In this document: positions 4,885-10,030 of the stretch, in pieces
How positions within the stretch are numbered: position 1 is the first letter of the stretch
Layout of the letters: each line of letters starts with the position of its first letter
Assembly (NCBI GenBank): GCA_965219415.1
Contig: OZ244742.1
Span: forward strand, 864,001-928,000
From: Candidatus Marinacidobacterales bacterium
GTDB lineage: Bacteria; Acidobacteriota; Vicinamibacteria; Marinacidobacterales; DATDRI01
Length of the DNA stretch: 64,000 bases
Reading direction: 5' to 3'
The notes under the pieces: model-generated
What the model was told of the DNA's origin: nothing
Databases searched by the model: none
The model's input: the letters and a program-made list of their open reading frames with translations, nothing else
Made by a program: the position numbers and the translations under genes

Positions 4885-5661
4885 ATGAAAAGATTCATAG
4901 GAAAAGTGGCACTCATCACTGGCGCCAGCCGCGGCATCGGTCGCGCGGTCGCCGAGGCCTTCGCCGCCGAGGGAGCCCAGGTGGCCCTGGCGGCACGGAA
5001 CGTAGAACAGATCGAAGAGTTGGCGGAGTCCCTCAATGGAGAGGAACGGCGCGCCATCGCGCTTCGTTGTGACGTTCGAGTCAAGTCAGAGGTCGAAGAG
5101 GCGGTAGCCGACATCGGCCGCACATGGGGAAAGCTTCATGTGGTCGTGAACAACGCCGGCGTGTCCGGCCGCACTCCGATCGACGATCCCACCGATGAGC
5201 GTTGGCATCAAATATTGGACACCAATCTGACCGGAGCCTATCTCATCACCAAGGCATCGCTCGAGCTTATGAGCTCGGGATGGGGCCGTATCATCAATGT
5301 CTCTTCAGTCCTGGGACGGTTTGGAGTGCCTGGTTTCGCTGCCTATTGCGCCTCCAAGCACGGCCTGCTTGGTTTTACTCGCGCCTTGGCGCTGGAGCTC
5401 GCCGCTCGGCAGATCACGGTCAACGCGATTTGTCCCGGCTGGGTCGCAACCGACATGGCGGAGCAGGGCATCCAGGAAACGGCGACTGCTCTGGGGATCT
5501 CGGCGGAGGCTTTTCGCGAGGAGGCGATCGCGGGAGTCCCTCTGAAGCGGTTCATCGAGCCGGACGAAGTGGCCAAGTTGGCGCTCTACTTAGCCTCCGA
5601 TGACGCCTCGATGATCACCGGCCAGACGTATAACCTCTGCGGCGGCCAAATTATGGACTAA
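4885..5661 (+). CDS. SDR family NAD(P)-dependent oxidoreductase
   Basis: TGASRGIG, NNAG, YCASK, NAICPG. Confidence 0.95.
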   Translation: MKRFIGKVALITGASRGIGRAVAEAFAAEGAQVALAARNVEQIEELAESLNGEERRAIALRCDVRVKSEVEEAVADIGRTWGKLHVVVNNAGVSGRTPIDDPTDERWHQILDTNLTGAYLITKASLELMSSGWGRIINVSSVLGRFGVPGFAAYCASKHGLLGFTRALALELAARQITVNAICPGWVATDMAEQGIQETATALGISAEAFREEAIAGVPLKRFIEPDEVAKLALYLASDDASMITGQTYNLCGGQIMD

Positions 5662-5670
5662 GAGCACTGG

Positions 5671-5718
5671 AAGTAATCAGTCAGCAGTGACCAATATGTA
5701 CTGATGACTGGTGACTTT
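5671..5718. repeat. Inverted heptamer-unit repeat, possible terminator hairpin
   Basis: AAGTAATCAGTCAGCAGT ... ACTGATGACTGGTGACTT, 15/18 complementary, just after the SDR stop. Confidence 0.5.
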
Positions 5719-5737
5719 TCATTGACTCTTCACTGCT

Positions 5738-5746
5738 TGATACAAT
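5738..5746 (+). promoter_or_regulatory. Extended -10 promoter (TGaTACAAT), probably giving a leaderless mRNA
   Basis: TGATACAAT ends 6 nt before ATG 5753; no SD sequence. Confidence 0.45.
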
Positions 5747-5752
5747 GAAGCC

Positions 5753-5977
5753 ATGGAAAACGGAGTTATCATCTTCGGCAAGGCCGGCTGACCCTACACC
5801 ACGGCAGCCCGTGAGGATTTCGCCAAGAAGAACACCCCAGTCGACTACGTCGACGTCAAGAGGGATCCCGAAGGAATGAAGCGCATGCTCGAGCTCTCAG
5901 ACGGGAGGCGGAGCGTTCCGGTGATCGTCGAAGACGAAAATGTAACCATCGGCTGGGGTGGAACCTGAGCCGTCTAA
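5753..5977 (+). CDS. Glutaredoxin-like (UXX-star type) selenoprotein with two Sec residues
   Basis: MENGVIIFGKAG-U-PYTTAAREDF...GRRSVPVIVEDENVTIGWGGT-U-AV*; TGA at 5789-5791 (Grx CPY position) and 5966-5968; SECIS-like hairpins follow both. Confidence 0.85.
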
Positions 5978-6106
5978 GCCCCCTCCGGTCGCAGGGTCCC
6001 TTAACCACTCTCCAGAGTTTCCTTCCCTCACAAAAACCACCTAAGCTGACTCGCAGCTGGAGCCATGGGGTGTGATAGGATAGCGCCCTTAGGAACTCAA
6101 TCGAGG

Positions 6107-7672
6107 ATGGTTACAGAGCCCGCCCAGCAAGTCGCCAAGCAATCGCCTCGGATTCGACTCCTCTCTTTCTTCAGCGATCCCTTCGACCTTTCGATAGCCG
6201 CCGCTCGTACGTGTTATATGCCGCGAGTCGTGGAGAGCTCGGAGATCACCGACCGCCAGCGGGATTCCATCAGTAGGTCCACCTATGGCGGCGGGCATCA
6301 TACCGTTTACCAGCACGCGCATTTCGTGTTCGGAATGGAGAATATCTCTCGCCAGTTCGTTTGGAGCTTCCTGCACAGCTACCCATTCTACAACTCCGAA
6401 CAGTCGAGCCAACGCTTCGTCCGGCTGGACGAAGTGCAGGCCTTCATTCCTCCCATGAATGCGGACGCCGCGGCAGTTTACGAGTCGGCCATCGTGAAAG
6501 CCTGGGAAAACTACCGACGACTCACAGAGATCCTAAAAATCGACACCTGGAAGATCATGGCCGATCTACGCAACTTCAACGAGACCGGGTCAACGAAGAA
6601 CGAAAAGCGGCGGAAGCGAATTGCGAGGGAAGCAGAAAAAAAGGCCATTGAGACGGCGCGCTACGTCATCCCGATCGCTGCTTTTACCTCCATGATTCAC
6701 ACCATCTCCGGGATCACCCTTCACCGGCTTCGACGCATGCAGCGGGCCAACGACGTTCCTTACGAAGCAGGCCTGGTGATCGACGCCATGGTCAGTGCGG
6801 TCCGGGAAATCGACCCCCTGTTCTTCGAAAAGATTGGCGAGCCCCCGCTCGGCAAGGACGAGCTTCCGGAGTTCGGTTTCCCACACCTGCAGCAGGACGC
6901 CGACTCTTTCTGCGAGGAGTTCGATCGCAAGCTCGATGGACGCACCGCGAAACTCATCGACCATTCCGATGAAGCGGAAACGGTCGTCGCCGATGCGTTG
7001 CGTGCGGTCCTGGGCCGGTCGAGTGAACAGCTCACGACCGAGGAGGCAATCGCTCGCATATTGGATCCGCATCTCAATCCTCTCCGAACCGACACGATGA
7101 ACGTCGCGGTGCACTCACCCATCATGCGCGCGCTCTACCATGCGAGCTACGCCTTCTCGAAGAAGATCAGCCATACGGCGGATTCTCAGGATCAGCGCCA
7201 CCGCATGGTCCCCGGCTCACGACCGCTTATGACCCTGACCGACACCGCACGGCCCGACTACATCGTCCCCATGTTGATCGAGGCCAACTCCGCTGCCCTA
7301 TCTCTCTATCGCGAGGCGATGGACGAGGCTTGGGGCACGAAGAATCGGCTTTTGGAACTGGGGGTCCCGCTCGAATGGGCGCTCTATGTGTTGCCCAATG
7401 CGAAGTCGGTTCGCTTCATAGAGTCCGGTTCGCTGATCTACCTCATGCATAAATGGACGATGCGGACGTGTTTCAACGCCCAGGAGGAGATCTATCGATC
7501 CTCCATGGACGAGCTCGAGCAGTTACGACAGGTGCACCCTCGCATCGCACGCTACATGGGACCGCCGTGCGTTATACGGAACGGCGTCGCCTCACCGCGA
7601 TGCACCGAAGGCGATCGGTTTTGCGGAGTACCGGTGTGGCAGAATTTCCCGGAAGTGGAACGACGAATATAG
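6107..7672 (+). CDS. thyX: FAD-dependent thymidylate synthase, tandem (double-domain) ThyX type
   Basis: GHHTVYQHA, SQRFV, ARYVIP in first half; QDQRHR, YVLPNA, RTCFNAQEEI in second half (ORF open from 6065). Confidence 0.8.
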   Translation: MVTEPAQQVAKQSPRIRLLSFFSDPFDLSIAAARTCYMPRVVESSEITDRQRDSISRSTYGGGHHTVYQHAHFVFGMENISRQFVWSFLHSYPFYNSEQSSQRFVRLDEVQAFIPPMNADAAAVYESAIVKAWENYRRLTEILKIDTWKIMADLRNFNETGSTKNEKRRKRIAREAEKKAIETARYVIPIAAFTSMIHTISGITLHRLRRMQRANDVPYEAGLVIDAMVSAVREIDPLFFEKIGEPPLGKDELPEFGFPHLQQDADSFCEEFDRKLDGRTAKLIDHSDEAETVVADALRAVLGRSSEQLTTEEAIARILDPHLNPLRTDTMNVAVHSPIMRALYHASYAFSKKISHTADSQDQRHRMVPGSRPLMTLTDTARPDYIVPMLIEANSAALSLYREAMDEAWGTKNRLLELGVPLEWALYVLPNAKSVRFIESGSLIYLMHKWTMRTCFNAQEEIYRSSMDELEQLRQVHPRIARYMGPPCVIRNGVASPRCTEGDRFCGVPVWQNFPEVERRI

Positions 7673-8646: not shown

Positions 8647-10030
8647 GGGTTTACGCGGATTCGTGTGGGTAAGTTCTGACGGAAAAACAGTGTAACTCAT
8701 TGTGTGGAAAAGGTATCGAGTACTTCATCAGGTGCTGAAAAGTGGTCCATTTTTAGGATAGGCTAGCCGAGTGAAAAATTCCCAGTCGATCCGCTCGCTG
8801 TTTGCGCTGCCAGGTTTCGTGGTTGGTGCCGGATTGAAGGGTCTATTCGGTGACCGATACGCCCGCGTCATCCAGCTCAAGAGGCGAAAAAAACAGCTGT
8901 GTGCTCTTACTGTGGGCAACGGTGCCGGGGGCGCTATGACAAGCAAGTGTGCCGGGTCCGCGACCTGTCGTTGGCAGGCTGGCGGATCTATCTGGAATAC
9001 GAGCGTTGGCGCGTCAACTGTTCTGGGTGCGGCGGTGTGCATGTAGAACACCTAGACTGGCTGGCGAACAACTCGCGCTACACCCAGCGTTTTGCGACGC
9101 ATGTGGGCAAGCTGTGCCGGGATATGCCGAACAAGGCGGTGGCCGAGATGGAACGTCTGCACCACGGTACGGTGAAGGCTCTGGATACGCTCTACATGCA
9201 AGAGCAGGTCGACCGGGCGGGGCTACCGGCGCCTCGGGCCATCGGTGTCGATGAGATCTCCATCCGCAAGGGACATAACTATCGCGTCATTGTCAGCGAC
9301 CTGGAGCGGGCGCGTCCCATCTGGGTGGGCGGTGAGGGTCGCAAAGAAACCGACATCGATTTGTTCTTCAAGGCGCCGGGCGGAAAGAAAAGCGCCCGTA
9401 TCAAGCTGGCCGCCATGGATACGTGGAAGCCCTTCCGGAACTCGGTGATTCACAACGCGCCTAATGCGCGGATCATCTTCGACAAGTTTCATATCATGCG
9501 TCATCTGTCAAAGGCCTTCGATGAGGTCCGGCGCGGTGAGTACAAACGCCTCAGCGGCAAGGACCGGTCGTACATCAAGGGGCAGCGTTACACTTTGCTT
9601 TCCCGGCGGGAGAACCTGAGCCTAGACGGTCGCCGCGCACTCAAAAAGTTGCTCCAGGCCAACCGGCGCCTGAACACCGCCTATATTTTGAAGGAGGTCT
9701 TCGGGCAACTCTGGGATTACCGCACCGAACGCGGCGCTCGCGCCTTTTTCACTCGTTGGAAAGACAGCCTCAAATGGCAACGCCTGCATCCGTACCAGAA
9801 GTTCGCCGGTATGATTGAGTCCCATTGGGATGGTATCGCCTCCTACTGTCATCCGGAGAACAAAGTCAGTCTCGGCCTAGTTGAAGGGGTCAACAACAAA
9901 ATCCGTGTTCTGCAACGACGCGCCTACGGCTATCGCGACGAGGAATATCTCAAGCTGAAGATCGTGGCGACTTTCCTTCCGCCATTACCCAGAAATGCAG
10001 TTTTCAACCCACACGAATCCGCGTAGACCC
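8647..10030 (+). mobile_element. ISL3-family insertion sequence, copy 1 (1384 bp)
   Basis: Terminal IRs GGGTTTACGCGGATTCGTGTGGGT / ACCCACACGAATCCGCGTAGACCC; 8-bp TSD TATAATAT at 8639-8646 and 10031-10038. Confidence 0.96.
8771..10026 (+). CDS. ISL3 transposase, probable -1 programmed frameshift at the A7 run (8887-8893)
   Basis: CxxC...CxxC, IGVDE, AAMD, FDKFH, VEGVNNKIR..RRAYGYRD; short upstream ORF joins the main ORF via AAAAAAAC. Confidence 0.92.

Follow-up and report, generated by a model that had tools for sequence, protein, structure and literature searches.

A predicted two-selenocysteine UXX-star gene in a Candidatus Marinacidobacterales genome, with candidate selenocysteine insertion elements after both UGA codons

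We analysed a 64,000-nucleotide stretch of DNA, here called the window, from Candidatus Marinacidobacterales bacterium (assembly GCA_965219415.1, contig OZ244742.1, positions 864,001 to 928,000 of the forward strand). Judging from sequence, positions 5753-5977 of its plus strand very probably hold a functional gene of the curated family NF041114, encoding a glutaredoxin-like selenoprotein with two selenocysteine (Sec) residues. The frame that opens at ATG 5753 reads MENGVIIFGKAG-TGA-PYTTAAR...TIGWGGT-TGA-AV-TAA and would yield 74 residues (coordinates include the TAA). Its two TGAs are codons 13 and 72. The first (5789-5791) falls at the glutaredoxin nucleophile position, in the motif U-P-Y-T. 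The second (5966-5968) is followed by GCC GTC (Ala-Val) and then, two codons past the predicted Sec72, by the TAA stop at 5975-5977. A first-pass annotation of this DNA had given the same frame, and all of its coordinates agree with ours. The predicted protein contains no cysteine at all, so Sec13 and Sec72 would be its sole redox residues.

Assignment to the family follows from profile searches with TGA read as Cys. The product scores 118.6 bits against NF041114, "UXX-star selenoprotein family 1" (cut-off 72), across profile positions 1-70 of 70, and 99.1 bits against the parent model NF041212 (cut-off 66). The full-length match bears out the UXX-star, glutaredoxin-like architecture with two Sec residues that had been proposed. 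Pfam Glutaredoxin, PF00462, is matched at 44.6 bits (cut-off 22.9), and three related models stay below their cut-offs: UXX-star family 2 (61.9 against 100), family 3 (57.6 against 97) and the HUGP fusion (59.6 against 325). The C-terminal layout, U72-A-V-TAA, is the one described by the 'UXX-star' criterion. Compared with NF041114 as a family, the window protein shares the full-length match, the U-P-Y-T motif, the C-terminal U-x-x-stop and the two Sec residues. It differs in ending with TAA, where 66 of 100 homologues have TGA, and in a C-C mismatch in its 3′ hairpin; nothing essential differs. A weaker NF041212 match elsewhere in the same genome (G000:C3:2415714-2415875, locus L025; 48.4 bits, below the cut-off) has no internal stop and is probably an ordinary Cys glutaredoxin.

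The gene is a member of an already catalogued family and is no discovery. In the consulted parts of a 2026 review (PMC13188914), the NF041114-type family appears as 'Distant Grx-like protein 1' with the entry 2, taken here as the number of Sec residues, and is credited to Zhang and Gladyshev 2008. For UXX-star family 2 and the HUGP fusion, the same parts give Haft and Tolstoy 2025 (mSystems) as the source. In the searched passages of Zhang and Gladyshev 2008 we did not find the name 'distant Grx-like protein 1'. Searching the full-text literature for "UXX-star" returned PMC13188914 alone.

Translation with table 11 recovers only a 30-residue piece of the frame (5876-5968), and the gene is therefore hidden from plain open reading frame (ORF) calling, as had been noted in the first pass. 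Public protein sets show a similar pattern. Among 17 database relatives, two consist of a fragment from the stretch between the two TGAs, and 11 have Cys at codon 13 and are truncated at codon 72; the other four have TGA translated as Trp. These four (P0011-P0014) show W wherever the gene has a Sec codon or its TGA stop, followed by 10-20 extra residues, and are mis-translations. Since plain ORF callers miss or fragment the gene, the two-Sec form is under-recorded outside NCBI's curated pipeline. The practical relevance of the finding is thus one of annotation: such callers either miss the gene or record pieces of it.

To follow the two TGAs across relatives, we used 61 related genomes, counting matches over the family cut-off, and a wider set of one genome per species (176 relatives), from which the best 80 were kept. 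With four duplicates removed, the combined total is 106 distinct genes. One of the matching related genomes, G007, is unpublished, and no claim depends on it alone. Matches over the cut-off occur in 30 of the 61 related genomes, and 29 of the 30 contain two in-frame TGAs. The best 80 come from Acidobacteriota, Methylomirabilota, Deltaproteobacteria and Thermodesulfobacteriota, Latescibacterota, Krumholzibacteriia, Armatimonadota and Planctomycetes, the closest among them being labelled Candidatus Marinacidobacterales and Vicinamibacteria. At codon 13, 97 of the 106 genes have TGA and nine have TGC or TGT; by its sequence it is a classical Sec/Cys pair. At codon 72, the 102 homologues that align to the end have TGA 100 times, Ser once and Gly once, and never TAA, TAG or Cys. 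The first-pass annotation had proposed looking for Cys at both positions in homologues; it was found at codon 13 (9/106) and not at codon 72. Conservation of the frame extends beyond both TGAs. The columns invariant among 96 aligned sequences are G9, K10, U13, T16, A19, R20, V55, P56, G67 and U72.

Two in-frame stops within 74 codons could also mark a decayed glutaredoxin pseudogene, or a TGA read as an ordinary amino acid, which is how some metagenome pipelines treated the homologues P0011-P0014. We give this explanation next to no probability, because the same TGA pair recurs in about 100 homologues from several phyla and strain variants never fall at either TGA. Positions 5700-6050 are covered by contigs from four studies, two with no differences and two with four each. 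All of these differences fall outside the TGAs, the TAA and the 3′ hairpin; the assembly itself may derive from one of the runs compared. The host uses TGA as a normal stop, which terminates 15 of the 33 window open frames of at least 300 codons. An altered code or decay is further countered by uninterrupted selA and selB genes and a complete Sec machinery.

The Sec machinery was sought in the organism's own genome (8.05 Mb in three contigs, estimated 96.3% complete and 8.45% contaminated). All four components named in the first pass were found over their cut-offs: selA (569.7 bits), selB (375.8 bits), selD (328.3 bits) and tRNA-Sec (69.7 bits). ARAGORN also detected a tRNA-SeC with anticodon tca, and neither selA nor selB has an internal stop. 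A caution against taking this machinery as the gene's own is that contigs C2 and C3 carry the Sec genes, with the window on C1, in an assembly with the contamination estimate given above. In the single-contig genome of a relative from the same genus (G001), the gene and selA share the one contig. As selA is present in 58 of the 61 relatives, including all 28 family f3 genomes that lack the selenoprotein gene, its co-occurrence is uninformative. The selD gene itself (G000:C3:3889655-3890587, locus L011), outside the window, has one in-frame TGA, and selenophosphate synthetase is probably also a selenoprotein here.

For the second TGA, the rival reading is that only the first TGA is recoded and the second is a real stop, giving a 71-residue protein that ends in GGT and a 3′ hairpin serving as a transcript-end or stability structure. 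Most of the database proteins (13 of 17) do end at ...GGT, ...GGG or ...GKT. Codon usage argues the other way. Codon 72 is TGA in 100 of 102 genes and never TAA or TAG, while 34% of the true stops in the same genes are TAA or TAG; a plain stop at codon 72 should be TAA or TAG in about a third of cases, in an argument that ignores relatedness. The two codons that follow look like coding sequence. Codon 73 begins with G in 96 of 100 genes. At codon 74, 99 of 100 genes have GTN, the third base being C in 47, G in 27, T in 18 and A in 7; Val74 is at least 90% conserved. A stop stands two codons past UGA-72 in every one of the 100 (TGA 66, TAA 17, TAG 17). This pattern, with a free third base in GTN and a constant stop next to it, is the signature of translated codons.

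Four homologues lack an end alignment (L055, L075, L103 and L133). L075 reads U-A-A-TGA, which fits by eye, and L133 lies at a contig end. L055 (G008:C2:3024175-3024366) has an altered C-terminus, leaving the family reading at the expected second TGA with GGT-W-S-G-L. A further match, G010:C20:130659-130863, comes in two pieces with one TGA each and is a damaged or altered copy, like L055. L103 runs past U-x-x with no stop over 10 codons. Two of the wider homologues differ at Sec72 itself, L078 with Ser and L131 with Gly. These exceptions at the C-terminus (L078, L131 and L103) may be sequencing errors or real variants. In the 66 loci whose terminal stop is TGA (L026, L027 and L031, for example), that stop lies 9 nt past the Sec-TGA and 2-6 nt ahead of the hairpin.

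The other evidence at codon 72 comes from predicted RNA folds. Just past the stop, in the 3′ untranslated region (UTR), positions 5981-5996 on the plus strand can form a hairpin with the stem CCCT(C)C/G(C)AGGG, which includes a C-C mismatch, and an outer stem TAAG/CTTA. The loop, GGTC, occupies 5987-5990, or positions 22-25 from the UGA, at a spacing of 18 nt. The CCCT..AGGG hairpin is present in the minimum-energy fold. Homologues folded singly likewise place a hairpin just past the stop, with the loop centre 21.5-25.5 nt from the U of the UGA in 82 of 100. Their loops are mostly GGUC, GUC, GGU, GUU or AGUUC, and their stems, of 4-12 pairs, have very different sequences. When MAFFT alignments of the 3′ region were given to RNAalifold, no pairs were predicted, since the loops, of 3-5 nt, shift the 3′ arms out of register; we therefore used single-sequence folding and same-register pair counts.

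Section 5 of PMC13188914 gives criteria for a bacterial selenocysteine insertion sequence (SECIS): a loop of 3-9 nt, an upper stem of 4-16 bp, a spacing of 16-37 nt, a G within the first two loop positions and an energy of at most -7.5 kcal/mol. In a SECIS-like test modelled on these, UGA-72 passed in 88 of 100 homologues, as against 215 of 1271 background TGAs in the same loci. We then looked for covariation in 19 of the 100 sequences that share one loop centre, picked by predicted hairpin position. Two-sided changes occur at all seven stem pairs, and 89.7% of cells pair, compared with 58.6% in shuffles (none of 500 reaches it) and 26-50% with the partner slid. These comparisons suggest that the post-stop hairpin is a covarying SECIS element, SECIS-2, present in a weakened copy in this genome, which is a small addition of this analysis. 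The 3′ hairpin described in the first-pass annotation would be the local copy of that element.

Several results weigh against SECIS-2 as a working element in the window. Its single-sequence fold is no better than that of dinucleotide shuffles (z = +0.13; 103 of 200 fold as well). It is the weakest of its kind, with the C-C mismatch where same-genus relatives have G-C. At -5.6 kcal/mol on 45 nt it fails the SECIS-like test; extending the fold to 50 nt, which takes in the outer TAAG/CTTA stem, brings it to -8.8. The choice of the covariation subset by hairpin position inflates the paired share, while the two-sided changes are less affected. The stem consists of 4 bp, the mismatch and 1 bp, with the loop GGUC and the 18-nt spacing inside the published ranges. 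Given this weakness, Sec insertion at codon 72 may be inefficient in the window copy. The weak hairpin and its failed test fit a plain stop at codon 72, and some termination at UGA-72 is likely if the SECIS is inefficient. Across the family, however, the post-stop hairpin has a G-G/U loop at SECIS distance, and a consensus scan of 5500-6200 found neither a T-run nor a terminator-like site at SECIS-2. With the codon usage above, we consider it very improbable that only the first TGA is recoded, and we keep Sec at both positions as the preferred reading.

For the first UGA, the candidate proposed earlier, the hairpin CACGG-CAGC-CCGTG at 5800-5813 on the plus strand with CCT/AGG outside it, is present in the minimum-energy fold but did not hold up as a conserved element. 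As a SECIS, its loop would start 13 nt past the UGA, short of the 16-37 nt of the model, and neither of the first two bases of the loop CAGC is a G. Among 29 distinct relatives, 73.8% of cells pair and two-sided changes are absent.

What is conserved after the first UGA is a nucleotide core, GCCCGTGAGG, at 5807-5816 on the plus strand, found exactly in 86 of 97 Sec forms and in one of nine Cys forms. Counted from the U of the UGA, the core GCCCG(U/G)GAGG spans G19-CCCGUGAGG-28, with G23 and U24 at 5811-5812. GCCCG(T/G)G is present in all 97 Sec forms. The synonymous bases C21 and T24 are both kept in 89 of the 97 Sec forms and in two of the nine Cys forms (Fisher p = 8e-6 without correction for relatedness); the eight Sec forms that change T24 all have G24. 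The adjacent third positions 6, 12, 15, 18 and 36 vary freely. We regard the core as a conserved, UGA-linked nucleotide element and a candidate SECIS-1, again a small addition based on sequence comparison.

As to the fold of this core, a fixed-register stem search over the 97 Sec forms returned just 3-bp stacks. Pairing GGCC with GGCC (18-21 with 27-30) leaves 87.9% of cells paired among relatives, and G19-C29 is lost if the tenth codon past the UGA is Asp, as in 74 of 97. A lower pair, 15-36, is GC in 35, CG in 25 and TA in 5 of 97, a level that none of 2000 shuffles reaches. As points against a SECIS here, the earlier hairpin folds with z = -1.11 and 34 of 200 shuffles do as well. At UGA-1 the SECIS-like test is passed by only 31 of 97 homologues, and the window copy fails it; the fold that puts G23-U24 in the loop has -4.3 kcal/mol, compared with -6.6 for the 5800-5813 hairpin. 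An Rfam scan of 5000-7000 with E up to 10 contained no SECIS family and gave chance microRNA and snoRNA matches alone.

Both elements can be set beside the E. coli fdhF-type SECIS. G-U stands at positions 23-24 past both window UGAs, and the second element has GGUC at 22-25, which we take to be identical to the fdhF SECIS loop. Unlike the fdhF element, the second element lies wholly past the stop, and its stem is short and mismatched. In the E. coli SECIS, as given in the consulted parts of PMC8659212, the upper stem-loop covers nt 15-31, with U17 and the conserved loop bases G23 and U24. No equivalent of the bulged U17 was identified.

The message may begin without a leader. An extended -10-like box, TGATACAAT, at 5738-5746 on the plus strand ends 6 nt ahead of the ATG, and from its sequence and that of relatives it is a putative leaderless promoter. 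Between the box and the ATG there is no Shine-Dalgarno motif, and the consensus scan of 5500-6200 found no -35/-10 promoter pair. For the start-motif counts, eight of the 106 genes were dropped for want of an in-frame ATG by the rule used. TGnTAnnnT ending 4-10 nt before the ATG is present in 23 of 29 relatives of the window's class, in none of 69 wider homologues and in 7 of 1960 random ATGs. The Shine-Dalgarno motif shows a different distribution: 6 of 29 relatives of the class, 51 of 69 wider homologues and 309 of 1960 random ATGs. A leaderless mRNA in the window's lineage, raised as an idea in the first pass, thus gains comparative support from the extended -10 box in 23/29 relatives, and this lineage-specific promoter pattern is a small addition of the present analysis.

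The protein was modelled with AlphaFold2 from 96 sequences, with Cys in place of Sec, giving a mean predicted local distance difference test (pLDDT) score of 95.6 and a predicted template modelling score of 0.87. The model has strands at 5-9, 30-34, 57-60 and 63-66 and helices at 14-25 and 39-48. Strand 63-66 is followed by a five-residue coil and a two-residue bridge, with no helix past it. The model therefore points to a truncated glutaredoxin fold, beta-alpha-beta-alpha-beta-beta, in which the C-terminal helix is absent. Residues 71-74 have a mean pLDDT of 98, and DSSP assigns strand or bridge at 54-55 and 72-73. The best solved folds in Foldseek are glutaredoxins, NrdH and the thioredoxin-like BC3987 (template modelling scores 0.72-0.80, 19-27% identity). 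The best solved relative by sequence (E = 5e-4) places codon 13 on the first Cys of CPYC and Ser-Val-Pro on the cis-Pro motif. Sec13 would lie where helix 1 begins, and the invariant Thr16 takes the place of the resolving Cys of CxxC.

Classical glutaredoxins have a CPYC- or CGFS-type active site and a C-terminal helix past a GG motif. With these and NrdH-redoxin (PF00462; 3ic4, 7c10, 3zit, 1h75), the window protein shares the fold, the nucleophile on helix 1, the cis-Pro loop (SVP here) and the GG motif past the last strand. It differs from them in having Sec for Cys, Thr16 for the second Cys of CxxC, no C-terminal helix and a second Sec in a short tail, at 19-27% identity and sequence E values of at least 5e-4. 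By its UPYT motif and modelled lack of the helix, the protein is glutaredoxin-like in fold and not a classical glutaredoxin.

From these observations we propose how the gene might be expressed and how its product might work. Transcription, driven by the extended -10 box, would probably start on the A of the ATG or on an adjoining base. SelB and Sec-tRNA would be recruited a first time by the in-frame element, with G23-U24 within the core GCCCGUGAGG, and a second time by the short 3′ UTR hairpin, which presents GGUC in its loop (positions 22-25, counted from UGA-72). The TAA, two codons past Sec72, would then end translation. In the model the Sec72 tail would form a beta-bridge, probably against Ser54-Val55 just ahead of the cis-Pro. 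This would lay the tail on the cis-Pro loop, the substrate-holding site of thioredoxin-fold proteins, and bring Sec72 beside Sec13. The two could then form a reversible diselenide, with the tail as a built-in resolving or shuttle arm; in the nine Cys13 forms a Cys13-Sec72 selenenylsulfide would take its place. An analogy may be drawn with mammalian thioredoxin reductase, in which a flexible C-terminal Gly-Cys-Sec-Gly arm carries redox equivalents to and from a buried centre. A near-C-terminal Sec on a tail is common to both, while fold and size are unrelated and the window protein would have as partner a second Sec (or Cys) in the glutaredoxin site, with no flavin.

The Sec13-Sec72 diselenide is our preferred mechanism by inference from the model. 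It has two points against it: it comes from a model with Cys for Sec, in which the pairing of 54-55 with 72-73 is an interpretation of the DSSP string, and metal binding or other substrates have been suggested for the Sec residues of UXX-star proteins in the consulted parts of PMC13188914. The two Sec residues might instead coordinate a metal or metalloid, or attack a substrate from outside the protein. A close selenolate pair would form a soft-metal site, and the titles of matched structure entries indicate that some glutaredoxins bind metal. In the window, however, neither flanking gene is one for metal resistance or transport (they encode a short-chain dehydrogenase and a tandem ThyX protein), and the neighbours that recur elsewhere are nucleotide-related or unrelated (ThyX, NDK, NUDIX, HhH-GPD, racemase, OPT transporter). 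Sec at the nucleophile position together with a cis-Pro on a glutaredoxin scaffold is also typical of thiol-disulfide exchange. We put metal binding or external attack at a distinct but minor chance, behind the intramolecular diselenide.

Upstream of the selenoprotein gene, a short-chain dehydrogenase resembling FabG and 3-hydroxybutyrate dehydrogenase is encoded at 4885-5661 on the plus strand and is conserved in the window's class. A gene upstream of this kind and on the same strand occurs in 22 of the 106 loci, nearly all in that class. Downstream, by 88 nt, domain matches identify a gene at 6065-7672 on the plus strand for a 535-residue protein with two tandem Thy1 (ThyX) domains, which may be co-transcribed with the selenoprotein gene. 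Its TIGR02170 score, 83.4 bits, is slightly below the cut-off of 87.9. Among the 106 loci, seven have a ThyX of this same type next to the selenoprotein gene and 13 have a second tandem-Thy1 type, one locus having both, so that about 19 loci in all have a tandem-Thy1 neighbour. The relatives' loci span 1.5 kb per side, which makes the ThyX counts lower bounds. Other lineages have a racemase, YjeF_N, an OPT transporter, NDK, HhH-GPD or NUDIX next to the gene, and no neighbour is universal among the 106 loci. An ISL3-family transposase (8899-10026; 294.1 bits, cut-off 180) lies about 3 kb downstream.

Two features of the family bear on how Sec is decoded, neither of them new in kind. The genes examined carry a C-terminal Sec without any Cys replacement. 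Moreover, in the 66 loci that end in TGA, one codon is read two ways inside three codons, a situation that the TAA of the window avoids. With a Sec-UGA and a stop-UGA 9 nt apart before a single hairpin, the family would be a compact natural test of SECIS spacing. For the organism itself we offer, as a long shot when all its parts are taken jointly, the following picture. The tail may act as a substrate arm that lays Sec72 on the cis-Pro loop and joins it to Sec13 in a diselenide, and no self-contained redox shuttle with two seleniums would then be smaller. A leaderless mRNA would encode it in the Vicinamibacteria-like Acidobacteriota, the window's class, where it would serve the neighbouring dehydrogenase and tandem-ThyX flavoprotein, and the efficiency of the weak SECIS-2 would set, according to selenium supply, the ratio of a 71-residue, one-Sec form to the 74-residue, two-Sec form.

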